Source of the DNA: Vicinamibacterales bacterium
GTDB lineage: Bacteria > Acidobacteriota > Vicinamibacteria > Vicinamibacterales > CAVVIG01
DNA length: 64,000 bases
Assembly: GCA_046331345.1 (NCBI GenBank)
Contig: JAXLRA010000006.1
Coordinates: 623,614-687,613, forward strand
Direction: 5' to 3'
The notes beneath the pieces are model-generated. The model was not told the origin of the DNA. It did not search any database and worked only from the letters and a program-made list of their open reading frames with translations. The translations under genes and the position numbers were made by a program. How positions within the stretch are numbered: position 1 is the first letter of the stretch; each line of letters begins with the position of its first letter. Positions 42,518-59,576 of this stretch are shown here, piece after piece.

Positions 42518-43192
42518 CTACCTGATGAGCGCCGGATCCGGTACACCAACCTCGGCGAACCCCCTGGCCCGGAGGACACAGCTGTCACACCGGCCGCAGG
42601 CCCTGCCTTCGGTGTCGGGGTTGTAGCAGCTGTGCGTCAGGCCGTAGTCGAGACCCAGGGCGAGCCCCCGCCTGATGATGTCGGCCTTCGAGAGCGCGAT
42701 GAGGGGGGTGTGGATCCGGAAGCGCGCCCCTTCGACGCCCGCCCGCGTGGCCAGGTTGGCCAGTTGCTCGAACGCGGCGACGAACTCCGGCCGGCAGTCC
42801 GGATAGCCGGAATAGTCGAGCGCGTTCACGCCGATGATGATGTCCGTCGCGCCGAGCACCTCGGCCCAGCCGAGCGCAAGCGACAGGAACACCGTGTTGC
42901 GGGCCGGGACATAGGTGGAAGGAATGTCCGTGGCGCCCAGGTCGCGATCCTCGGGCACGGGCAGGTCGGTCGTAAGCGATGACCCGCCGATGGCGCGCAG
43001 GTCGAGTGGCAGCTCGAGGTGCCGCTCCACGCCCAGGGCCGCCGCCACGCGCCTGGCCGCCTGCAGTTCGTGCGCGTGCCGCTGACCATAGAGGATGGAC
43101 AGCGCGTCGAGCGTGAAGCCGTCCGCGCGGGCAATGGCGGCCGCCGTGTACGAGTCCAGACCGCCGCTGAGAAGGACGACCGCGCGCGGCAT
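42518..43192 (-). CDS. queC: 7-cyano-7-deazaguanine synthase
   Basis: ORF trimmed to ATG 43192 ([16 protein letters not shown]). The C-terminal zinc Cys cluster is SCY...CGRCDSC. Its start overlaps the queE stop (ATGA). Confidence 0.93.
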
Positions 43193-43842
43193 CAGACGCC
43201 CCGTGTCTCCGGCGACCAGATGAACTTGTGCAGCTGCAGCTGCACCCGTACCTTCAGCCGATCGGCCAGCACCCACTCCGACAGCTGTCGCGTATCCTGC
43301 ACGCCGTGCACCGGGGAGAACAGCACGGCCCCCACTTTTCCGATGAGTCCGTACTGCGCCACCACGTCACGGGCGTATTCGTAGTCCGCCCGATCCTTGA
43401 TGACGAACTTCACTTCGTCGCCGGGCCCGACGAGCGCCAGGTTCTCCCAGTGGTTGCGGTGGGACTCCCCGCTGCCGGGACACTTCACGTCCACGATCTT
43501 CAGGACCGCTGCGGGCACCCGGGCGATGGACCGATGGCCACCCGTCTCGATCATCACGGTGTGGCCGCGCTCCAGCAGCCGCTCCATGAGCGGATAGACA
43601 TCGTCCTGCAGCAGCGGTTCCCCGCCGGTGACTTCGACGAGCGGACACCCGTACCCCTCCACCTCGGCGACTACATCGTCAACGCTGCGCTTGCGTCCTT
43701 CGTGGAACGCGTACGGCGTATCGCACCAGGAGCAGCGCAGATCGCACGCCGTGAGGCGCACGAACACGCACGGCTCGCCCGCGCGGCGGGACTCGCCCTG
43801 GATGGAGTGGAAGATCTCGTTGATGGTGAGCATCTGGAACAA
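43192..43842 (-). CDS. queE: 7-carboxy-7-deazaguanine synthase (radical SAM)
   Basis: It reads [39 protein letters not shown] 43833 is an alternative start. Confidence 0.92.
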
Positions 43843-43913
43843 TTGCCAAGGCTAATCGCCAATCGCTGAATTGAACTTCCAATCAGAAATCAGCATGCAG
43901 CAATTGGCGATGT
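43840..43913. repeat. heptad repeat tract (AATCGCC / AATCAGA types) in the queE/DUF72 divergent region
   Basis: caattgc caaggct aatcgcc aatcgct gaattga acttcca atcagaa atcagca tgcagca attggcg. Confidence 0.65.
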
Positions 43914-43928
43914 CTTATTGTACGTGTC

Positions 43929-44915
43929 GTGGGTGAGTTGCGGATCGGCACATCGGGCTGGAATTACCCCTCGGGCAAGGGCACCTGGAACGGCGTGTTC
44001 TATCCGCCGGCCAAGGGGCGCCCGAAGACGTTCGACGAACTCGCCTTCTACGCGGAACACTTCGACACGGTCGAGGTGAACTCGACGTTCTACGGGCAGC
44101 CGCGCGCAGCGGTGTCCAGGAACTGGGCGGAGCGGACACCGGCCGGCTTCGAGTTCTCGGTCAAGCTGTACCAGAAGTTCACGCACCCGAAGATGTTCGA
44201 GACCGCGGTGCGCACGTCGATCCGGACGCCAGAGGGGCACGACGACGCAGTGAGGGAACTCGTGAAACCCACGCAGGCCGATCTCGACGCGTTCAGGCGC
44301 GGCATCGACCCGCTGGCGTCCGCCGGGAAGCTCGGCGCCGTGCTCGCGCAGTTTCCCCCGAGCTTCAAGTCGGGCCCGACCGAGCGGGAGTACCTGATCA
44401 GCCTGCTCCGCGCCCTGTCCGGCTACACGGTGGCGGTCGAAGTGCGCCACAGCAGCTGGAGCGATGCGTTCAGCGAGACGCTGGACCTGCTCAACGACGC
44501 CGGGGCGGCCTGGGTGCAGATCGACGAGCCCAAGTTCCGCTTCTCGATCAGGCAGAACCGGTTGCCGAACGTCAAGGGGTTCTACTACATGCGGCTCCAC
44601 GGGCGGAACGCCGCCCAGTGGTGGACCCACGGCGCCTCGGAAGACCGCTACAACTACCTCTACTCGGCGGACGAACTGCGCGAGTTCAGCGACACCGCGG
44701 GCGCGGCACGGCAGCTCGTGAAGAAGGCCTACCTCTACACGAACAACCACTTCTCGGCGAAGGCGGTCGCCAACGCCACGACGATCAAGCAGCAGTTGGG
44801 GGAGCCGATCACCGGCGAGTACACGTCGGAGTTCATCGCCCAGTTCCCGGATCTGGCGAACGTCGTCCGGGTGCACGCCCCAGGCTTCGCACTGCAGCCG
44901 TCCCCGAAGCGGTGA
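43929..44915 (+). CDS. DUF72 family protein
   Basis: GTG start. It reads LRIGTSGWNYPSGKGTWNGVFYP...FDTVEVNSTFY. Confidence 0.85.
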   Translation: MGELRIGTSGWNYPSGKGTWNGVFYPPAKGRPKTFDELAFYAEHFDTVEVNSTFYGQPRAAVSRNWAERTPAGFEFSVKLYQKFTHPKMFETAVRTSIRTPEGHDDAVRELVKPTQADLDAFRRGIDPLASAGKLGAVLAQFPPSFKSGPTEREYLISLLRALSGYTVAVEVRHSSWSDAFSETLDLLNDAGAAWVQIDEPKFRFSIRQNRLPNVKGFYYMRLHGRNAAQWWTHGASEDRYNYLYSADELREFSDTAGAARQLVKKAYLYTNNHFSAKAVANATTIKQQLGEPITGEYTSEFIAQFPDLANVVRVHAPGFALQPSPKR

Positions 44916-45021
44916 AAACGCTCACGGCCGTCATTACGAACCGGCGACTGCCAATGTGAAGGCGGTCCTCCGAGATCCGTAATGTCCCGCGTCGCCCGTG
45001 TCAGAATCCATATAGCTGAGC

Positions 45022-46200
45022 ATGCGGGCGTTTCGACGGTTTTCTGACTGGTGGTTCGAGGTCTGGCGCGGCGATCCGTTCGCGTCCGACCTTCCGATGC
45101 AGGGCGAGCACAGCGTCGCCCGTGCCCGCTTCCTCGTCATCGGCTGCCTGACGCTGATCAACGTGATGATCACCGCGTTCACGCCCGGCAATACGGACTT
45201 CGACGGGTCGCTCCCGCTCAACCTGGCCGCGTGGGCAGGCGCGGCCGTGGTGCTCATTGCGACGAGGCGCGGCAACAAGCCTGGCTGGCTCGCGGTCTGC
45301 ACGGTGGTCGGAGATGTCTCCGCCGTCTCCCTCCTGATGGCGGCCGACCTCCTCAAGGGCCTGCCGTCGGTGGTCCTGAACAGCCGGGTCACGTTCTGCA
45401 CGTACTTCCTGGCCATGGTCGGCACCTGCGTCCGGTTCAGTCCGGGCCTCGCGGTGCTGAGCGGTGTTGTCGCAGGCGTGCAGTACGCCGGGCTCGCGTA
45501 CTGGGGCATCAGCATCTGGCCGGACACGCCGACGCTGGACGTCATCCAGCACGGCCAGGTCACGGCCGGCGTCCAGATCGAACGCATTGCGACGCTCATG
45601 GTCTTCGGCGGCCTGTGCGCGTCCATCGCGAACTGGGCGAAGACCCTCCGATCGACCGCCACGCACGATCCGCTCACGGGCCTGCTCAATCGGCGCACGT
45701 TCGACGAGCAACTGCACGGGGAACTCCTGCGCGCCGAGCGCAACGGCGACCCGTTTGCCGTGGCCATGATTGACGTGGATCACTTCAAGCGCGTGAACGA
45801 TCATTACGGGCACTACGCCGGCGACGAGGCGCTGAAGTCCGTCGCGATGGTCATGCGTGAAACGCTGCGCCAGACCGACCTCGTTGGCCGCTGGGGCGGC
45901 GAGGAGTTCGCACTGGCCTTTCCGTCCGAGCGCACGGCCTCAAGCAGCGTCATGCTGGAGCGCCTCCGCTCGGCGCTCGAGTCGCGCATCACCGAACTGC
46001 CGAACGGCACGAAGATCAGGCTGACGATTTCAGCTGGTGTCGCATTCGCGCCTGAGGACGGTCGCGACGCCACGACGCTGCTCGCCGTGGCCGACACCAG
46101 GCTGATGGAGGCGAAGCGCCGCGGCCGCAACCGCGTGGTCGGCGACGAGACCCCGGTGCAGGTGGACCTGATCGAGCCCGCGTTCGAGCAGGAGCAGTGA
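45022..46200 (+). CDS. membrane-anchored diguanylate cyclase (GGDEF)
   Basis: An N-terminal multi-transmembrane region is followed by DPLTGLLNRR...DVDHFKRVNDHYGHYAGD...RWGGEEFAL. Confidence 0.9.
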   Translation: MRAFRRFSDWWFEVWRGDPFASDLPMQGEHSVARARFLVIGCLTLINVMITAFTPGNTDFDGSLPLNLAAWAGAAVVLIATRRGNKPGWLAVCTVVGDVSAVSLLMAADLLKGLPSVVLNSRVTFCTYFLAMVGTCVRFSPGLAVLSGVVAGVQYAGLAYWGISIWPDTPTLDVIQHGQVTAGVQIERIATLMVFGGLCASIANWAKTLRSTATHDPLTGLLNRRTFDEQLHGELLRAERNGDPFAVAMIDVDHFKRVNDHYGHYAGDEALKSVAMVMRETLRQTDLVGRWGGEEFALAFPSERTASSSVMLERLRSALESRITELPNGTKIRLTISAGVAFAPEDGRDATTLLAVADTRLMEAKRRGRNRVVGDETPVQVDLIEPAFEQEQ

Positions 46201-46237
46201 GGACGGACGCCGGGAGACTCAGGAGGATGGGACGCGG

Positions 46238-46843
46238 CTATTCGCGCACGGACACGCGCGTGATCATGTCGCCGACCACCAGCTTCGCGGGCACATCGAA
46301 CCCTTCGATCACGCGGCCGATGACCGCGTACTGGCCGTCGAGTTCGGGCTTGTCATCGAGCACGACGTAGAGCTGGCTGTCGGCTTTCGCCGGCTCGCCC
46401 GCATGCGCCAGGCCCACCGCCATGGCGACATTCTTCCGCTTCAGTGAGACCTCGGCGACACCGATCGGTTTGCCGCTGGACGCCTCGACACCTCGCCCCC
46501 ACCACTGCTGCTTCTCGAGATCGCGCGTCTGCGGATCGCCGAACTGGACCACGAAGTGCGGCAGCGCGCGGTGCACGCGCTGGCCGTCGTAGAAGCGATC
46601 CTTCGCGAGCCCCACGACGTGCGCGACAGAGATCGGGGCGTCGTGCGGATACAGCTCGATGGCGAAGGTGCCCTGCGACGTCTCGACGACAAGGACCGGC
46701 GCGCTGCCCTGTGCCACGAGGCGCGGCCCGACGACGAGGTAGGCGCCAGCTGCGAGGAGGATACCGGCCACCACAAGCATGACGGCCCGGCCGCGACGCG
46801 TCAGCGACTGCAACTCGGTGAGGCGGGTGCGGGTGTTGGTCAT
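46238..46843 (-). CDS. cyclophilin-type peptidyl-prolyl isomerase (membrane-anchored or exported)
   Basis: ORF trimmed to ATG 46843. It has a transmembrane anchor followed by FAIELYPHDAPISVAHVVGL...FHRALPHFVVQFGDP. Its start overlaps the nth stop (ATGA). Confidence 0.88.
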   Translation of the reverse strand: MTNTRTRLTELQSLTRRGRAVMLVVAGILLAAGAYLVVGPRLVAQGSAPVLVVETSQGTFAIELYPHDAPISVAHVVGLAKDRFYDGQRVHRALPHFVVQFGDPQTRDLEKQQWWGRGVEASSGKPIGVAEVSLKRKNVAMAVGLAHAGEPAKADSQLYVVLDDKPELDGQYAVIGRVIEGFDVPAKLVVGDMITRVSVRE

Positions 46844-47547
46844 GACGCGAGGCGCTCCGGCGCCGGATGTTTCGACACCGCGCTCACCCCGCGCTTCGGG
46901 CAGTCCGGCTCGATTACGCAGCCGTTGCAGCGCGGGTAATTGGGCCGGCAGACGTTCTGCCCCCAAGTGACGAGGTAGAGGTTGATGTGCGGCCACCACT
47001 CTCGGTCGGTGGCGGCGTAGAGCGCCTGCTCGGTCTCTTCCGGTGTGCGGGTCTTCACCCAGCCGAGCCGGTTCGAGATGCGGTGGACGTGCGTGTCCAC
47101 ACAGATGTTCTGCTGGCTGCGGAACGACAGGATCAGCACGAGATTGGCGGTCTTGCGGCCGACACCCGGGAACAGGAGCAGTTCCTCCATCGTGCCCGGC
47201 ACGACGCCGCCGAACCGCTCGAGCAGCAACTGGCAGGTCGCCTTCACGTGCTTCGCCTTGGTGTAGAAGAAGCTCACCGGCTTGATCAGCTTCTCGATCT
47301 GCTTCACCGAGAGCTTCACCATGACGTCGGGAGTCGGCGCGACCTTGAACAGCCGCGTCGATGCCGCGAGCGTCGTGGCGTCCTGCGTCCGCGCGGAGAG
47401 GAGCGTCGCGATGAGGACCTGGAACGGATCCTCTTGCTGGGACTCGGAGATCTTCTCGATGGCCGGCAGCTCGAGCCCGGTGATGGCGCGGGAGAGCTTG
47501 CGCATCACGGCCTCCACGTTCTGCGGGCGCTTCGGCTTACGGCTCAT
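46840..47547 (-). CDS. nth: endonuclease III
   Basis: ORF trimmed to ATG 47547. It has an HhH-GPD region (LLLFPGVGRKTANLVL...VDTHVHRISNRLG) and the 4Fe-4S cluster CRPNYPRCNGCVIEPDC. Confidence 0.92.
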   Translation of the reverse strand: MSRKPKRPQNVEAVMRKLSRAITGLELPAIEKISESQQEDPFQVLIATLLSARTQDATTLAASTRLFKVAPTPDVMVKLSVKQIEKLIKPVSFFYTKAKHVKATCQLLLERFGGVVPGTMEELLLFPGVGRKTANLVLILSFRSQQNICVDTHVHRISNRLGWVKTRTPEETEQALYAATDREWWPHINLYLVTWGQNVCRPNYPRCNGCVIEPDCPKRGVSAVSKHPAPERLAS

Positions 47548-47564
47548 AAGATGAGAGCGATGCT

Positions 47565-47597
47565 TGCGTTTCAGAACCAGCTGTAGTGTGAAACGCA
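47565..47597. other. 9-bp stem hairpin between the 2-hydroxyacid dehydrogenase gene and nth
   Basis: TGCGTTTCA, a 15-nt loop, then TGAAACGCA. There is no U-tract on either strand. Confidence 0.5.
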
Positions 47598-47615
47598 GCC
47601 TCCGCGGTTGGCAAT

Positions 47616-48554
47616 CTACGGAATGGGAGTCACGGGCGGCCGTCCGCTCAGGACGGCGATCACATTCGCAGCGGCGAGGTCTGCCATCGCGGTACGCGTT
47701 TCGGTGGTCCCGCTGCCCAGGTGCGGCACGAGCAGCACGTTCTCCAGCTCGAACAGGTCCGGGTGGATCGTCGGCTCCTCTTCGTACACGTCGAGTGCGG
47801 CACCGGCGATGAGGCGCTGCTTGAGCGCCCACGCAAGCGCACCTTCATCAACCACCGGCCCGCGGGCCGTGTTGATCAGGTATGCGGACCGTTTCATCCG
47901 CGCGAGCGCCTTCTGGTCGATCAGGTGCTTCGTCTCCGGGGTCAGCGGGACGTGCAGCGAGACGATGTCCGAGGTATTGAGCAGCTGGTCGAGCGGCATC
48001 CGTTCGGCGCCGGCCAGCCCCTTGTCGCTCCGCGACGAATAGGCCACCTTCACCCCGAACACCGCGGCGCGGGCGGCCACGGCTGCGGCAATGCGCCCCA
48101 GCCCGACGAGCCCGAGCTGCTTGCCGCGCAGCTCCGTCCCCAGCATGTAGTCGAAGGCCCAGCCCTTCCACTCGTGCCGGCGCACGACGCGCTCGCCTTC
48201 CGAAATGCGGCGGGTGATGCCGAGAATGAGCGCCCATGTGAAATCGGCCACCGACTCGGTCAGCACGTCCGGCGTATTCGTGCAGATGACGTTGTGCGCC
48301 CGGCACGCGGCCACGTCGATGTTGTTGTAGCCCACCGCGACGTTGGCCACCACCTTCAGGTCTGTCCCCGCATCGAGGAGGGCATCGTCCACGCGCTCGG
48401 TCAGCATCGTGATCAGGGCGTGCTTCCCGACCACGGCCGCACGGAGCTGTTCCGGCGTAATCGTGCCCTCGCCGGCAAACACCTCGACGTTGCCGACAGC
48501 TTCGAGCTTCGTAATAACGGAGGACGGGAGCTTGCGGGTAACGAAGATGTTCAT
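47616..48554 (-). CDS. D-isomer-specific 2-hydroxyacid dehydrogenase (glyoxylate/hydroxypyruvate reductase-like)
   Basis: ORF trimmed to ATG 48554. It has the NAD motif GLVGLGRIAAAVA and a catalytic region (NTARGPVVDE...EPT...LVPHLGSGT). Confidence 0.88.
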   Translation of the reverse strand: MNIFVTRKLPSSVITKLEAVGNVEVFAGEGTITPEQLRAAVVGKHALITMLTERVDDALLDAGTDLKVVANVAVGYNNIDVAACRAHNVICTNTPDVLTESVADFTWALILGITRRISEGERVVRRHEWKGWAFDYMLGTELRGKQLGLVGLGRIAAAVAARAAVFGVKVAYSSRSDKGLAGAERMPLDQLLNTSDIVSLHVPLTPETKHLIDQKALARMKRSAYLINTARGPVVDEGALAWALKQRLIAGAALDVYEEEPTIHPDLFELENVLLVPHLGSGTTETRTAMADLAAANVIAVLSGRPPVTPIP

Positions 48555-48564
48555 TTCGGTCCGT

Positions 48565-48624
48565 GTAGTGTCCACCTTCAGGTGGACCACTCTGCTGACA
48601 GGCCCGCCTGAAGGCAGGCACTAC
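48565..48624. repeat. GC-rich REP-like composite hairpin (CTGAAGG core)
   Basis: The outer stem is GTAGTG...CACTAC. Inside it are GTCCACC-TTCA-GGTGGAC and GCCTG-AAGG-CAGGC. The first inner hairpin has the same sequence as 4847-4866. Confidence 0.75.
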
Positions 48625-48634
48625 ATGAGGCGTG

Positions 48635-48889
48635 TCAGTGCCCCAGAGACTTGCAGTAGCCGCAGTGGTCGCAACGATGGTTCGGTTCGATGATGCACTC
48701 GCCGTCCGGAGTGCCAGCCACGACGAACAGGCTGTGGCTTGCGTGAATCTGGATGCCTGCGGGTGCCGGCGACGGCGCAGCCGGCTGCGGGTGTTCCGCC
48801 TGCGGCTCGCGCGACACCCCGGGAGCCCCGGCATGCCTCGCGATGGCCTCGCGAATCATCGCGCGCAGATCCTGTTCAGAGAGCGCCAT
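48635..48889 (-). CDS. 84-aa hypothetical protein with an N-terminal encapsulation-peptide-like helix, a Pro-rich linker and a C-terminal Cys/His cluster
   Basis: ATG 48889 has an AGGTGG Shine-Dalgarno and lies 14 nt inside the upstream BMC-P gene. The sequence is MALSEQDLRAMIREAIARHAG - APGVSREPQAEHPQPAAPSPAPAG - ...GECIIEPNHRCDHCGYCKSLGH. Confidence 0.6.
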   Translation of the reverse strand: MALSEQDLRAMIREAIARHAGAPGVSREPQAEHPQPAAPSPAPAGIQIHASHSLFVVAGTPDGECIIEPNHRCDHCGYCKSLGH

Positions 48890-49154
48890 CGATGTCCACC
48901 TGATCGATGATCCCAATGACCGCCGCATCTACGGGCGCGCCCTTCTGCCCGAGCGCCTCGTTGGCAGCCCGCCCCTCGACCACGACCAGCACCTTCTCGT
49001 GCACGCCCGCACCAACACCGTCCACAGCCAGGAGCGGCGTGCCGCGCGGCGTGTCGTCGAGGTTGAGCGGCTGCACCATGAGCAGCTTGGCCCCCTCGAA
49101 CTTCCGGTGTTTCTGCGTCGAGACCACGGTCCCGATCACGCGGGCGATCTGCAT
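48876..49154 (-). CDS. BMC vertex pentamer protein (EutN/CcmL family), copy 3
   Basis: ORF trimmed to ATG 49154. The sequence is MQIARVIGTVVSTQKHRKFEGAKLLMVQPL...AVDGVGAGVHEKVLVVVEG...VDAAVIGIIDQV. Confidence 0.88.
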   Translation of the reverse strand: MQIARVIGTVVSTQKHRKFEGAKLLMVQPLNLDDTPRGTPLLAVDGVGAGVHEKVLVVVEGRAANEALGQKGAPVDAAVIGIIDQVDIDGAL

Positions 49155-49157
49155 CTC

Positions 49158-49232
49158 AGTTGGCGATGGGCGCTGGGCTATGGGCGCCGGGCCTGCTGGA
49201 GGCCTGCCGCCCATGACCTATCGCCCATGGCC
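49158..49232. repeat. inverted heptad repeat (TGGGCNN / GCCCATG) between BMC-P copies 2 and 3
   Basis: ttggcga tgggcgc tgggcta tgggcgc cgggcct gctggag gcctgcc gcccatg acctatc gcccatg. Confidence 0.7.
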
Positions 49233-49233
49233 G

Positions 49234-49500
49234 TTACTCCGTATTCCAATGGTCGACGATGCCGACGATGCCGGCGTCGACGGGGGCTTCGACCGGATAG
49301 AACGGAAAGCTGGCTTCCTTGCCGCGAACGAAGAACACCTCTTCGCCGACGCCCGCGCCGACGGCGTCGACCGCGACGAGCGGGCGTCCGGCCGGTTCCC
49401 GTTCCGGCGTGAGCGGCTGCACCAAGAGCAGCTTGATGCCGGTGAGGTTCTCGTCCTTGCGGGTCGAGACCACCGTGCCGATCACGCGGGCAATCTGCAT
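49234..49500 (-). CDS. BMC vertex pentamer protein (EutN/CcmL family), copy 2
   Basis: MQIARVIGTVVSTRKDENLTGIKLLLVQPL...AVDAVGAGVGEEVFFVRG...VDAGIVGIVDHW. Confidence 0.88.
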   Translation of the reverse strand: MQIARVIGTVVSTRKDENLTGIKLLLVQPLTPEREPAGRPLVAVDAVGAGVGEEVFFVRGKEASFPFYPVEAPVDAGIVGIVDHWNTE

Positions 49501-49501
49501 G

Positions 49502-49771
49502 TCAGGACGAGACTTCGATGGTGTCGATGATGCCGACGATGGCGGCGTCGACCGGGCAGTCCTTCATGCCCGACGCCATGCGCGCCGAGCTGCCCGAGAC
49601 GATGAGCACGGTTTCGCCGACGCCGGCGTCGACCGTGTCCACCGCCACGAGATAGCTGCCCTCGGCCTTGCCCTTCGGATCGACCGGCCTGACGATCAGC
49701 AGCTTGTTGCTGACCAGCCGGGGGTCCTTCCTGGTGGCGACGACCGTGCCTACGATCTTTGCGAGGAGCAC
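49502..49771 (-). CDS. BMC vertex pentamer protein (EutN/CcmL family), copy 1
   Basis: GTG start at 49771, 7 nt after the BMC-H stop. The sequence is (M)LLAKIVGTVVATRKDPRLVSNKLLIVRPV...AVDTVDAGVGETVLIVSGSSAR...VDAAIVGIIDTI. Confidence 0.85.
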   Translation of the reverse strand: MLLAKIVGTVVATRKDPRLVSNKLLIVRPVDPKGKAEGSYLVAVDTVDAGVGETVLIVSGSSARMASGMKDCPVDAAIVGIIDTIEVSS

Positions 49772-49778
49772 CCGACTA

Positions 49779-50069
49779 CTAGGCCTTCGCGTTCGCCTTG
49801 CCGATCGGCAGCACGTCCTCGAGGTTCGCGTGCGGACGCGGGATGACGTGCACGGAGACCAGCTCGCCGACGCGGCGCGCCGCCGCGGCACCGGCATCGG
49901 TCGCCGCCTTCACCGCCGCCACGTCGCCGCGCACAATGGCCGTCACGTAGCCGGCGCCGATCTTCTCCCAGCCGACGAGGCTGACCTTCGCCGCCTTCAC
50001 CATGGCGTCGGCGGCCTCGATCATCGCGACCAGGCCCTTCGTTTCGACCATCCCAAGTGCCTCACCCAT
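49779..50069 (-). CDS. BMC-H hexameric shell protein (PduA/EutM/CcmK-type single BMC domain)
   Basis: [60 protein letters not shown]...VHVIPRPH, with a GGAGA Shine-Dalgarno 8 nt upstream. Confidence 0.93.
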
Positions 50070-50198: not shown

Positions 50199-51089
50199 TC
50201 ATTTCAGGCTGCGGATCGCATCCTCGATGAGCGCAGACAGTTCGCGGTATGTTAACCGAATTTCCTCGTCCCCTGCCGGCTCCGCCGCCGTGGCGTTCGG
50301 GAGGGGCGCACCCGGGACAATCGGATCCGGCACCAGCCGGCTCCGGCCGTCGCCCTCGGGCGCCTGCACGACCTGACAGGTCACAGGCTCAGGCCCGGAC
50401 AACAGATCGCCCACAACGGACGGATCCGGACAGATCGGGGCCGGGGCCTTGATCCCGTAATTGTTCCGGAGCCCCTGGAGGCGGTCCACTTCGTCGCGCG
50501 CAATCAGGTTCTCGCGACCGAGCATGCGCGCCACGAGGCTGATCTTGGCGAAGTGCTCGATGGTTTCGAGCTTGTAGTAGGCCGCGAAGAGATCGGCGCC
50601 CAGGGTCAGCGCGCCGTGGTTCGCCAGCAGCATGCCGTCGTGCGCCTTCACGTACTTCCGCACCGCCGCAGGCAGTTCGGACGTCGAGGGCGTCGCGTAT
50701 TCCGCAATCGGAATGCTGCCGAGCGTGGTCAGCACCTCGGCGAGCACGGCCCGGTCGAGCGGAATGCCCGCGACGGCAAACCCCGTGGCAATGGGCGGAT
50801 GCGCGTGGCAGACCGCCCTGGCATCAGGGCGCTGGCGATACACCTCGAGGTGCATCAGCATCTCGGACGAGGGGTCGCGATCCCCCTGGATCTTCTTCCC
50901 GTCCATGTCCGTGATGCACATCATGTCCGGCGTCATGAACCCCTTGCAGACGCTGCGGGGGGTCATGAGCAGGCGGTCCTCGCCGAGGCGGACGCTGATG
51001 TTCCCGTCGTTCGACGCGGTGTAGCCGCGTGAGTACATCCGGCGGCCGACCTCGACGATGTCGGCGCGCAGCTGCGATTCGACGGTCAT
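50199..51089 (-). CDS. class II aldolase/adducin-family enzyme with a Pro-rich linker and a C-terminal encapsulation-peptide-like helix
   Basis: ORF trimmed to ATG 51089. The core reads ASNDGNISVR...PSSEMLMHLEVYRQRPDARAVCHAHPP...LLANHGALTLG. The tail reads ...PDPIVPGAPLPNATAAEPAGDEEIRLTYRELSALIEDAIRSLK. Confidence 0.88.
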   Translation of the reverse strand: MTVESQLRADIVEVGRRMYSRGYTASNDGNISVRLGEDRLLMTPRSVCKGFMTPDMMCITDMDGKKIQGDRDPSSEMLMHLEVYRQRPDARAVCHAHPPIATGFAVAGIPLDRAVLAEVLTTLGSIPIAEYATPSTSELPAAVRKYVKAHDGMLLANHGALTLGADLFAAYYKLETIEHFAKISLVARMLGRENLIARDEVDRLQGLRNNYGIKAPAPICPDPSVVGDLLSGPEPVTCQVVQAPEGDGRSRLVPDPIVPGAPLPNATAAEPAGDEEIRLTYRELSALIEDAIRSLK

Positions 51090-51397
51090 GCGGTGCGGCC
51101 CTGCGTGGCCATCCGCCCGGCGTGCTGGCCCGCGACGAACTGGTCGCGACACCCGGTCGAGCAGAAATAGACGCGATCGCCGTTCGTGCCCGAGAGGGTC
51201 ACGGCCCTGTCAGGAACGACAAAGGTGCCGCAGATCGGGTCGCGCGACATCTGGACGCTGCGCTGGGGTGAGCGCGAACCCGGGCGCGGAGCCGCCGTGC
51301 TCCCATCCTGCATCCCGCGGATGATGCCGGCCCAGAGGCGCGACACCGCCCGGACGACGATCGTCAGCAGGATCGACAGGAGGATGAACCGAAGCAT
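51086..51397 (-). CDS. small membrane protein with a YHS/TRASH-type metal-binding domain
   Basis: ATG 51397 gives the transmembrane helix MLRFILLSILLTIVVRAV, followed by RDPICGTFVVPDRAVTLSGTNGDRVYFCSTGCRDQF. It has ATGA overlaps with both neighbouring genes. Confidence 0.7.
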   Translation of the reverse strand: MLRFILLSILLTIVVRAVSRLWAGIIRGMQDGSTAAPRPGSRSPQRSVQMSRDPICGTFVVPDRAVTLSGTNGDRVYFCSTGCRDQFVAGQHAGRMATQGRTA

Positions 51398-52020
51398 CAG
51401 GCTCCCGGCTTGGCGGCCGTCGTCGTGTTGCCGCCCGGGTGAGCCGACTTCAGGCTGTCCAGGGCGCGCTTCGCGGCCTGCCCTTCGGGACCGTTGGGGT
51501 CGATCTGAATGACCTGCTGCCAGGCCTGTTCGGCCCCCGCCAGGTCCTGCTTGCCGAAGGCCCGGACAATCCCCTGATTCAGGAGTGTCTTGGTGTGCTT
51601 CGGATCGATCTTCAGCGACTCCTCGAACTGGGCCAGCGCCTGATCGGGCTGGTTGGTGTAGTAGTAGCTCACGCCAAGGTCGGTGCTGACGTTGACGTCC
51701 TTCGGGTTCAGCTTGAAGGCTTCGCCGTACCACTTGATGGCGTCGGCGTAGCGCTCTGAGTCGAAGTAGAGGTTCCCCAGGTCGATGCGGGGCTGCGGGT
51801 TCGTGGGCTGTTGCTGGGCCACCGAACTCAGCGCGTTGACCTTGTTCTGGTCCAGCACCGGCGCCGTGGGCGCGGCCGCTGCCGGCGCCGAGGCCGGGGC
51901 TGATGCAGCAACAGGCGCTGCGCCCCCGCGCATGACCGCCTGCTGGCTCCCAATCACCCAGCCGGACAGCAGCCCGAAGACCACACCGGCAATACCTACA
52001 GCAATCGCGTCAGGTCTCAT
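51397..52020 (-). CDS. membrane-anchored tetratricopeptide-repeat (TPR) protein
   Basis: An N-terminal transmembrane segment and an Ala/Pro linker are followed by TPR-like repeats (LGNLYFDSERYADAIKWYGEAFKLNPKDVN...). Confidence 0.75.
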   Translation of the reverse strand: MRPDAIAVGIAGVVFGLLSGWVIGSQQAVMRGGAAPVAASAPASAPAAAAPTAPVLDQNKVNALSSVAQQQPTNPQPRIDLGNLYFDSERYADAIKWYGEAFKLNPKDVNVSTDLGVSYYYTNQPDQALAQFEESLKIDPKHTKTLLNQGIVRAFGKQDLAGAEQAWQQVIQIDPNGPEGQAAKRALDSLKSAHPGGNTTTAAKPGA

Positions 52021-57223: not shown

Positions 57224-59576
57224 GTGAGAATCGGCGCCGTGATCCCGACTCGCGCCCGATGGCTGACTCCCCTGCTGTGTCTGGCCGTGCTGACGGCGGC
57301 ACCGCCTTCCGCGGGCGCGCAGACGGCGAGGCCGGCCGGCCCCGCCGGGACCGATGCCGACCCTCCAGTGCCGGTCGCTCCCCAGTCCATTTCGCGCGCG
57401 GGGACAACGGCCGCGTGGTGGTGCGCGCGATCCGGCTGACACAGCCGCTGCGCGTGGACGGCCGCCTCGATGACAGTGTGTACGCCGAGAACGAGCCCGC
57501 CGGCGGCTTCATCCAGGCGACCCCGGCGAACGGCCAGCCGGCCAGCGAGCGCACCGAGGCCTGGGTGATGTTCGACGACCGGTTCATCTACATCACCGGC
57601 AAGTGCTACGACTCGGCGCCGCCGGACAAGTGGACCGCCAACGAGCTGCGGCGCGACACCAACCAGCTTCGACAGAACGACATGTTCGGCGTGCTGATCG
57701 ACACGTTCCACGATCGGCGGAACGGCTACAACTTCTACGCGAACCCGCTCGGCGGGTTCACCGACCAGGCGGTGACGGACGAGGGCAACCCGAACCCGGA
57801 CTGGAACCCGGTGTGGGAAGTGCGGACCGGCCGGTTCGACGGAGGCTGGATCGTCGAAATGGCCATCCCCTTCAAGTCGATCCGCTACAACGCCGGCACC
57901 AACCAGACGTGGGGGCTCCAGCTGCGGCGGGCGATCCGGCGCAAGAACGAGTGGACCCACCTCACCGCGCTGCCAGCGGCCAATGCCGGCTCGTCCAGCG
58001 TCTTCCGCGTGTCGCGCGCCGCATCCCTGGTGGGACTGGACCTGCCGGCGGTCAGCCGGAACGTGGAATTGAAACCATATGGCATCTCCAGGCTGACGAC
58101 CGACCACGTCCGGACCCCGGCGGTATCGAACGATCCGGAGGGCACGGCCGGACTCGATGCCAAGTACGGCGTGACCGCGAACCTGACGGCGGACCTCACG
58201 GTGAACACCGACTTCGCCCAGGTGGAGGTCGACGAGCAGCAGGTGAACCTGACGCGCTTCAGCCTGCAGTTCCCGGAGAAGCGCGACTTCTTCCTCGAGG
58301 GACGGGGGATCTTCGACTTCGGACGCTCGGGAGCGGGCTCGGGCGGTTCAGCGGCGCTCGGCAACTCCAGCCCCAACAACGCAGCCCCGACGCTGTTCTA
58401 CAGCCGGCGGATCGGGCTGAATGCCGGCCGGGTCGTGCCGATCGACGTGGGCGGACGCCTGACCGGCAAAGCCGGCAAGTACACCATCGGCGCCCTGAAC
58501 CTGCAGGCGGGTGATGAAGCCGTCTCCGGCACGCCCTCCACGAACTTCACCGCGGTGCGCGTGAAGCGACGTGCCGCGGCGGAGCAGCACGGCGTCCTCG
58601 GCGACATCGCGCTCCCGCATCGGCGGTTCCGGGCGCCTCCAACCAGGCCGTCGGCGTGGACGGCGCGTTCTCGTTCTTCCAGGATCCCTACGCGGGCGGC
58701 TATTTCGCGCGGTCGATCACGCAGGGCCGCAACCAGGACAACGACAGCTACCAGGGCCGGGTCGACTACAACGCCGATCGCTACGGCATGAAGGTGGACT
58801 ACCTGGAAGGTCGGCGACAACTTCAACCCTGAAGTCGGCTTCGACGAGGCGCGACAACTTCAAGCGCTCATTCGCGTCGGCCGCTTCAGCCCGCGGCCGA
58901 AGGGACGCTCGCGGGTCCGCAAGTGGGCACTCGAAGGCACACTGGAATACCTGACCAACGGCGCGAGCCAGCTCGAGACACGCCAGCGCGGGCCAGGGCG
59001 GCGGTCGAGTTCCAGAACAGCGACATGTTCACCCTCGAGGCGAACAACAACTACGAACTGCTCCTCCGCCCATTCACGCGGTCGCCACAGGCGTGGCGGT
59101 GCCCGTCGGGGCTACCACTACAGCGACACCACCGTCTCGTACGCCTTCGGCCAGCAGCGGCGGATCTCCGGCACCGCCTCACCCAGGCCGGGCACTTCTA
59201 CAACGGCGACATCACCGCGGTGGGTTACAGCGGGGGCGCGTCGCGATCCTGAAGCAGTGGTCACTCGAGCCAAGCCTGTCGGTGAACCACATCACCCTGC
59301 CAGCCGGCGCCTTCACGACGACGGTGGTGCGCGCGCGCACCGATTACGGCTTCTCGCCGCGCATGTTCGCGAGCGCGCTCGTCCAGTACGCCTCGAGCGA
59401 CCACATCTTCAGCAGCAATCTCCGGTTCCGCTGGGAGTACCGGCCGGTAGCGAGTTCTTCGTGGTGTACACCGACGAACACACACCGTGCAGCACGGCTA
59501 CCTCGGCCTGCGCAATCGCGCGTTCGTCCTGAAAGTGAATCGGCTGCTGCGGTTCTGGATGGACGCGGCTGCGTGA
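57224..59576 (+). pseudogene. DUF5916 / carbohydrate-binding-family-9-like outer-membrane protein, heavily frameshifted in this sequence
   Basis: The signal peptide is in frame 57224 and the main body in frame 57199, up to about 58568. The family-like sequence then continues only by hopping frames about a dozen times, until TGA at 59574-59576 (...[12 protein letters not shown]...). Confidence 0.7.

Follow-up and report, generated by a model that had tools for sequence, protein, structure and literature searches.

The 64,000-nt stretch of contig JAXLRA010000006.1 from a Vicinamibacterales bacterium that was analyzed here (referred to as the window; all positions are counted within it) encodes, directly after the shell genes of a bacterial microcompartment (BMC), a protein of 84 residues with an N-terminal helix similar to an encapsulation peptide (EP) and four cysteines near its C-terminus. 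We interpret this small EP-Cys4 protein as a lumen-targeted, shell-tethered metal centre held by the four cysteines, with redox-active iron as the favoured metal, and assign a probability of about 0.4 to this reading as a whole. The locus in which the gene is located is a BMC of the ACI type in all features that could be tested, and the protein family is one that is already catalogued but functionally uncharacterised.

The small protein ends in a conserved cysteine knuckle

The protein ends with CIIEPNHRCDHCGYCKSLGH, where four cysteines in the arrangement C-x7-C-x2-C-x2-C occur together with five histidines, just as a preliminary description of the stretch had read from the translation. In homologues of the expected length, the corresponding domain of about 38 residues, referred to as the knuckle, is located at the extreme C-terminus, and it was modelled by AlphaFold2 from a 150-sequence alignment with a predicted local distance difference test score (pLDDT) of about 72. 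Homologues were retrieved with patterns containing the motif and with profiles, and the conservation of the cysteines is therefore partly ascertained by construction; with this limit, the cysteine motif was intact in 259 of 260 distinct homologues that had not been selected for having four cysteines. The conservation of the other residues was counted over 360 distinct domains chosen for having all four. Here, Glu68 (358/360, 99.4%), the last residue His84 (352/360, 97.8%) and His75 (347/360, 96.4%) were retained in almost every domain, followed by Ser51 (94%), His49 (89%) and His52 (86%). In addition, Gly83 was invariant in an alignment of 82 sequences, and Gly77 and an aromatic residue (Tyr or Phe) at position 78 occurred in at least 96% of the members. 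His70 was not conserved, and the HxSH pair was lost together in 10-14% of the members. As HxSH is dispensable and His70 variable, the universal core consists of the four cysteines, Glu68 and the Gly-His C-terminus. The earlier view of a Cys4/His-rich knuckle is thus borne out in that all cysteine and most histidine positions are conserved, but "His-rich" was an overstatement, as only His75 and His84 are near-universal. Joint loss of His52 and His84 exceeded expectation (odds ratio 6.5, p = 0.016, without phylogenetic correction); a second metal site was considered on this basis and rejected, as the signal is too weak for an assignment.

The N-terminal helix resembles the encapsulation peptide of the co-encoded aldolase

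AlphaFold2 predicted a helix at residues 5-20 (pLDDT 84-88), in which R9 and R13 are near-invariant and, by inspection, L8, M11, I12, A15 and I16 share one helical face. The helix core, (E/D)LRA(L/M)(V/I)R(E/D)AIARH, is similar to the tail EIRLTYRELSALIEDAIRSLK of the class II aldolase encoded in the same locus, and a corresponding likeness is seen between ELRALVxEAIA and the C-terminal EP of the aldolase, ELSALIEDAIRSL. The helix is also akin to the classical encapsulation peptides of PduD and PduP. It is followed by a linker which, in 237 full-length homologues, ranged from 0 to 79 residues (median 23) and consisted of Ala, Pro, Gly and Ser to 55%, so that the arrangement is that of an EP, i.e., a terminal helix of about 15-20 residues that is set off by a flexible linker. 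The assignment as an EP is based on the terminal position, the predicted helix, the linker and the likeness to the aldolase EP. Since the helix resembles that EP and is joined to a flexible linker, delivery into the lumen, as proposed in the preliminary description, is plausible, and we consider it highly probable that the small protein is encapsulated in the BMC. The same N-terminal segment was called an EP by Sutter et al. (2021; PMC8217296).

The gene is real and its product strongly constrained

The protein is encoded in a minus-strand open reading frame (ORF; 48635..48928) whose translation ends in IQIHASHSLFVVAGTPDGECIIEPNHRCDHCGYCKSLGH, followed by the stop codon. The true start is likely the ATG at 48889, for three reasons. 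With this start, the overlap with the stop of the upstream BMC-P gene is 14 nt, the conserved helix lies right at the N-terminus, and the product of 84 residues has the same sequence as a hypothetical protein that is deposited at NCBI for a Vicinamibacterales metagenome-assembled genome (MAG; P0001). The exact cysteine motif occurred once among the 113,314 six-frame residues of the window, compared to 0.06 expected occurrences. In this GC-rich DNA, 45 ORFs of the window have at least four cysteines within 15 residues, and since such cysteine-dense off-frame ORFs are common, the single occurrence of the motif is weak evidence when taken alone. The decisive proof came from conservation, both of the motif among the homologues (259 of 260, see above) and of the codons. 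Over the last 20 codons of 82 orthologous sequences, the entropy at codon positions 1, 2 and 3 was 0.46, 0.35 and 1.03, respectively; variation is thus mainly found at third positions, indicating purifying selection in the frame of the small gene. This confirmed that the gene is real and strongly constrained.

The small gene is coupled to the shell genes of ACI-type loci

When 185,579 species genomes were scanned, a relative was encoded in 140 loci. The 80 loci that were fetched are mostly labelled as MAGs of Acidobacteriota/Vicinamibacterales, and a few bear other MAG labels (Acidimicrobiia, Bifidobacterium). In 84 of 84 loci with upstream sequence, the small gene was located directly 3' of the third BMC-P gene. 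The order of the cluster, i.e., aldolase with EP, BMC-H, three BMC-P genes and the small gene, was also kept in the divergent locus L089, and in 64 of 72 loci the start of the small gene overlapped the stop of the third BMC-P gene, in 48 of them as ATGA. These loci show that the small gene is tied exclusively, and by translational coupling, to ACI shell genes. The proposed association with microcompartments therefore held in every locus examined, including the constant neighbourhood of BMC-P genes, and no predominance of homologues outside BMC loci was found.

The gene 3' of the small gene in the window encodes a D-2-hydroxyacid dehydrogenase, which has no EP-like extension and whose best NCBIfam match, glyoxylate reductase, remained below the model cutoff. 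This gene was missing beside the small gene in about 11 of the 80 loci and in L089; in the latter, an unrelated secreted protein is encoded in its place. The loci without the dehydrogenase (L038, L039, L043, L052, L055, L058, L069, L072, L073, L075, L079 and L089) come, apart from the divergent one, nearly all from a subclade of the small protein with the signature 'LVN..DAC..KSHGH'. As the dehydrogenase is lost while the small gene stays, the small protein is tied more tightly to the shell and aldolase module than the dehydrogenase is.

The testable features by which ACI loci are recognised were all found. A PF00596 gene encodes a class II aldolase with a C-terminal EP, an adjacent BMC-P triplet is accompanied by at least one BMC-H gene (48876-50069), a hydroxyacid dehydrogenase of pfam00389/02826 is present in the main locus (47616-48554), and the host is an acidobacterium, as indicated by the identical Vicinamibacterales MAG protein and the labels of most loci. 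The small protein itself, with about 80 residues, an N-terminal EP and conserved C-terminal cysteines (C65/C73/C76/C79), also corresponds to the ACI description. A Pfam scan of the ten large ORFs in the window identified no PF00171 aldehyde dehydrogenase (AldDh), which is consistent with an AldDh encoded in a satellite locus, as is typical of ACI.

The family was listed earlier as an unnamed ACI-locus protein of about 80 residues in a catalogue comprising 125 ACI loci (Sutter et al., 2021, Nat Commun 12:3809, Supplementary Data 2; PMC8217296), where the pfam00596 aldolase with C-terminal EP, the hydroxyacid dehydrogenase, the BMC-P triplet and BMC-H belong to the ACI locus as well. The authors reported no known homologues of the small protein and suggested that metal binding is important for ACI loci; they gave the protein no function, structure or metal assignment, and we found no later characterisation of the family in the literature. 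While three conserved cysteines were described there, four were universally conserved in our analysis. Further additions to the earlier entry are the invariant Glu68, the obligatory C-terminal Gly-His and the dispensable HxSH, the overlap with the stop of the third BMC-P gene, the independence from the dehydrogenase, the size of the family in metagenomes and the occurrence of the knuckle in no other protein context.

The knuckle belongs to none of the metal-binding families compared

When 1.84 billion representatives were searched exhaustively by HMMER with a profile of the knuckle (E <= 1e-3), 246 clusters were obtained, and the best 150 of these 246 were all small proteins. A word-indexed search returned at least 500 proteins, and among the matches listed all were unnamed and had no Pfam domains. 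No significant match of the small protein to Pfam or NCBIfam was obtained, nor did a profile search of PDB sequences or a fold comparison return one. The earlier statements that the sequence fits no ferredoxin or rubredoxin consensus and belongs to no recognisable family are accordingly correct. The PDB profile matches that did appear (a fungal isomerase, a medium-chain dehydrogenase/reductase (MDR) alcohol dehydrogenase, Cas-phi and an epimerase) were rejected as coincidences of short motifs.

Two signals were seen at low level. When 150 alignment members were scanned against Pfam at E <= 10, the sole recurrent family was Fer4_2, a 4Fe-4S binding domain, which appeared in 13 of the 150 members with a sub-threshold best E-value of 0.039; an hhalign comparison of the CxxCGxC stretch with a clostridial ferredoxin gave a probability of 25% over 13 aligned columns. 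The best local look-alike in the PDB was the MDR alcohol dehydrogenase 5vm2, where the family stretch IEPsVrCdHCGYC finds its counterpart in IEPGVPCGHCRYC (E = 0.4), and hhalign against the zinc lobe of a yeast alcohol dehydrogenase gave a probability of 3%. We regard both the Fer4_2 and the MDR-lobe matches as leads that may guide the assignment and not as tests of it.

The likenesses to known metal proteins are confined to parts of the motif. With clostridial-type 4Fe-4S ferredoxins (Fer4 clan) and synthetic ferredoxin maquettes, the small protein shares a CxxCGxC triad after a hydrophobic strand, but its fourth cysteine is located seven residues upstream instead of downstream in CxxxCP, and the 38 residues would hold a single site; neither CxxCxxCxxxCP nor a significant Fer4 profile match was found. 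Rubredoxins and zinc ribbons have two CxxC(G) knuckles on a scaffold of beta-hairpins, and of such knuckles the small protein has only one (C73-x2-C76-G-Y), with no Pfam or fold match. The structural zinc lobe of MDR proteins likewise combines three closely spaced cysteines with one at a distance of seven, but in the reversed order C-x2-C-x2-C-x7-C and within the ADH_N domain, to which there was no match; nothing else of the MDR fold is present. The CDGSH (mitoNEET) pattern C-x-C-x2-(S/T)-x3-P-x-C-D-G-(S/A/T)-H was absent by inspection, with no Pfam match, the C...G-H ending being the sole common feature. As the defining motifs are lacking, the ferredoxin, rubredoxin/zinc-ribbon, MDR-lobe and CDGSH families do not include the small protein, although it may work like a member of one of them.

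Among BMC proteins, the pore clusters of PduT and GrpU and the C-terminal tetracysteine extension of PduK are iron-sulfur (Fe-S) components, in which cysteine motifs are likewise associated with shells and thought to move electrons (PMC6325248). These are, however, shell proteins with BMC domains, whereas the small protein has none, is EP-tagged and is predicted to be lumenal; no sequence similarity to PduT, GrpU or PduK was detected.

No second copy or fusion of the knuckle was found in the window or in 87 loci. Long metagenome proteins that appeared to be fusions with the knuckle were rejected as frameshift, read-through or chimeric gene calls; the C-terminus of the long gene call P0058, for example, is common to the normal EP-bearing member P0072. 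In P0073 and P0123 (also in P0058, P0074 and P0102), an N-terminal part of BMC-P or a foreign N-terminus is joined directly to the knuckle. Such joined gene calls probably arose by deletion or as chimeras of the assembly; if BMC-P were truly fused to the knuckle, this would be informative about the binding partner. We also considered that the knuckle could be the C-terminal domain of about 50 residues of the ACI AldDh. As no protein of AldDh length (about 500 residues) was present in the best 150 of the 246 clusters, a close relation to the AldDh tail is unlikely, which says nothing about a remote one. Within the window, a weak tblastn match to residues 18-81 of the small protein (58935..59108, plus strand; 27% identity over 64 residues, E = 0.002) probably stems from the Pro/Ala linker, which is of low complexity.

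A proposed tethered metal centre and its alternatives

In the reading that we favour, the N-terminal, putatively amphipathic helix would act as an EP by which the protein docks either to the shell surface facing the lumen or to the bundle of EPs in the cargo core, and the disordered Pro/Ala linker of variable length would serve as a leash. The four invariant cysteines of the knuckle would bind one metal centre, beside which Glu68, His75 and Gly-His84 may form a functional surface or a second-sphere site. The centre would be redox-active iron, either as a small Fe-S cluster or as a rubredoxin-like Fe(Cys)4, and the small protein would function as a leashed one-electron carrier for the redox chemistry of an encapsulated aldolase/aldehyde-dehydrogenase pathway. 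Of these steps, the binding of a metal by the four cysteines is very probable, while iron rather than zinc and the role as an electron relay are speculative, with somewhat less than even odds. A small metal-binding or Fe-S module with a putative role in electron relay, cofactor recycling or scaffolding had also been proposed in the preliminary description. On inspection, C-x-H-C-G-Y fits the rubredoxin knuckle CxxCG(Y) as well as the ferredoxin triad CxxCGxC, and ferredoxin maquettes, synthetic peptides of 16 residues with an upstream fourth cysteine and CxxCxxC, bind [4Fe-4S]. Iron is favoured on the basis of this CxxCGxC/CxxCGY signature, the recurrent Fer4_2 signal and the PduS/PduT Fe-S pair that ACI genomes sometimes possess (Sutter et al., 2021; PMC8217296).

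Several observations weigh against this interpretation. AlphaFold modelled the small protein with only moderate confidence. With an Eisenberg hydrophobic moment of 0.21, the helix does not exceed shuffled controls (mean 0.27), a test that is uninformative for the EP assignment. The canonical ferredoxin motif is absent, and the Fer4_2 matches are sub-threshold and limited to 9% of the members. Furthermore, no obvious donor or acceptor of electrons is encoded in the locus, a flavoprotein is lacking, and PduS/PduT are found only occasionally. Cultured Vicinamibacterales are aerobic, and a cluster exposed in a domain of 36 residues would be sensitive to oxygen; zinc is the usual metal of bacterial Cys4 mini-domains. 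The iron reading also has a more far-reaching form, which is rather unlikely. In this form, the roughly 36 residues of the knuckle would represent a new and minimal natural fold for Fe-S or rubredoxin-like iron, and the protein would be the first dedicated electron carrier that an EP targets to a metabolosome. As a 'ferredoxin on a leash', it would carry electrons back and forth between the dehydrogenases of the lumen and either the shell or the occasional PduT-type pores. If true, it would provide cofactor recycling in ACI compartments without an alcohol dehydrogenase.

In likelihood, a structural zinc adaptor comes close to an iron centre, and it is in its own right a possibility to be taken seriously at well below even odds. 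Here, zinc would only fold a tiny interaction module, the EP would bind the shell and the knuckle would bind an EP-less cargo such as the dehydrogenase, another cargo domain or itself, and thereby recruit or cross-link the core. The succession of EP, linker and domain is the architecture of a shell adaptor, and the protein would resemble a mirror image of CcmN of beta-carboxysomes, which combines a small protein-binding domain, a flexible linker and a shell-binding EP. This likeness is architectural only: the EP of CcmN is C-terminal and that of the small protein N-terminal, the domain of the small protein is about six times smaller, cysteine-based and not homologous, and its cargo binding is putative. 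The adjacent 2-hydroxyacid dehydrogenase has no EP, and 'piggy-back' encapsulation of EP-less enzymes is described in a review on glycyl radical enzyme microcompartments. The best PDB look-alike is a structural-zinc lobe, and the many conserved polar residues (E68, H75, S81, H84) could form an interface. The hosts are aerobic, which would also suit zinc. However, the knuckle is fully conserved where the adjacent dehydrogenase is absent, an abundant scaffold would hardly be coupled in translation to a vertex protein of low copy number, and the similarity to the MDR lobe is not significant, with the cysteines in reversed order.

Less probable by far is a lumenal metallochaperone or metal buffer that would reversibly bind Zn, Fe, Co (or Cu) and keep the encapsulated class II aldolase metallated. 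Class II aldolases are well established to need a divalent metal, and the conserved potential ligands (four Cys, E68, H75, H84, H52, H49) exceed the need of one site. In addition, a membrane-anchored TRASH/YHS-like protein with an invariant C-x22-C-x3-C is encoded in the same operon, and metal binding is a theme of ACI loci (Sutter et al., 2021; PMC8217296). Such a role has no known BMC-resident precedent, however; Cys4 sites bind metal too tightly to hand it on with ease, 10-14% of the members do without the HxSH pair and the aldolase could receive its metal before encapsulation.

Still more improbable is a metal-free thiol/disulfide module, in which cycling of C76-G-Y-C79 would protect or regulate the catalytic cysteine of AldDh or gate assembly. 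CGYC is the active-site sequence of DsbC, the CxxC pairs are invariant, the hosts are aerobic and acylating AldDh is known to use a catalytic cysteine, but a domain of 38 residues has no thioredoxin fold, four invariant cysteines at such spacing are better suited to metal and there is no lumenal source of reductant. Finally, a cytosolic small zinc-finger regulator, or a gene merely syntenic within one order, is very improbable: all loci are from one lineage of Vicinamibacterales-like Acidobacteriota with conserved synteny that includes the unrelated endonuclease III (EndoIII) and peptidyl-prolyl isomerase (PPIase) genes, but the N-terminus resembles the aldolase EP, the start overlaps the BMC-P stop, the adjacency is kept in a divergent locus with different downstream genes and DNA-binding features are absent.

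Neighbouring genes and other features of the locus

The positions of all features are summarized in Table 1. At the 5' end of the cluster, the protein with TPR repeats has an N-terminal hydrophobic segment resembling a membrane anchor, and its gene is the first of the cluster in every sufficiently long locus. The start of the following TRASH/YHS-like gene overlaps the stop of the TPR gene, and its own stop overlaps the start of the aldolase gene. Its product combines a transmembrane helix at the N-terminus with the motif RDPxCGTF...(Y/F)FCSxxCR, i.e., C-x22-C-x3-C, of which the three cysteines are invariant in 54 loci, and it is a putative second metal-binding small protein of the operon.

Table 1. 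Position of the small EP-Cys4 gene, its parts and the neighbouring genes within the window
Feature	Position	Strand	Assignment and basis
D-2-hydroxyacid dehydrogenase, glyoxylate/hydroxypyruvate reductase-like	47616..48554	-	PF02826 (E=7e-58), PF00389
Small EP-Cys4 protein, coding sequence	48635..48889	-	84 aa plus stop, begins MALSEQDL
C-terminal knuckle, residues 47-84, ends at invariant Gly-His	48638..48751	-	Conservation, AlphaFold2
Cys65-x7-Cys73-x2-Cys76-x2-Cys79 motif, CIIEPNHRCDHCGYC	48653..48697	-	Conservation
Variable linker, Pro/Ala/Gly/Ser-rich, residues 21-46	48752..48829	-	pLDDT about 50
EP-like helix, residues 4-20, SEQDLRAMIREAIARHA	48830..48880	-	AlphaFold2, conservation, aldolase likeness
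Third BMC-P (EutN/CcmL) gene	48876..49154	-	PF03319, E=9e-30; stop overlaps start of small gene
Second BMC-P gene	49234..49500	-	PF03319, E=3e-30
First BMC-P gene, GTG start, 89 aa	49502..49771	-	PF03319, E=3e-31; length as in 89-aa orthologues
BMC-H shell gene	49779..50069	-	PF00936, E=5e-30; sole BMC-domain gene in window
Class II aldolase, C-terminal EP …EIRLTYRELSALIEDAIRSLK	50199..51089	-	PF00596, E=5e-49; EP tail conserved across loci
Small membrane-anchored TRASH/YHS-like protein	51086..51397	-	103 aa; Pfam YHS E=1e-3, NCBIfam PP0621 E=6e-3
TPR protein	51397..52020	-	Weak CcmH/CycH-type TPR match

The 80-nt spacer between the small gene and the dehydrogenase gene contains a long hairpin of about 27 bp (48564..48625, minus strand) without a U-tail, with a free energy of -49.2 kcal/mol over a region of 101 nt (z = -4.7 compared to shuffles). 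It was rejected as a conserved regulatory element, as length and structure of the spacer vary widely across loci, but may modulate expression of the dehydrogenase in this lineage. Further downstream (43192..47832), genes for EndoIII (HhH-GPD), a cyclophilin-type PPIase, a DUF72 protein and a radical-SAM protein with QueC are syntenic across the order (L001, L004 and others). As unrelated neighbours are syntenic as well, gene adjacency in this lineage partly reflects shared ancestry and is not to be overinterpreted.

Implications

ACI compartments are common in soil Acidobacteria, and the small protein, whose link to the shell genes is as tight as that of any component of the locus, represents a handle on their chemistry. 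Whether the knuckle holds iron, zinc or nothing would tell apart a lumen with electron transfer, a lumen in need of a metal supply and a lumen with a novel adaptor. In addition, a tag of 20 residues combined with a metal module of 38 residues would offer a compact building block for the engineering of microcompartments.

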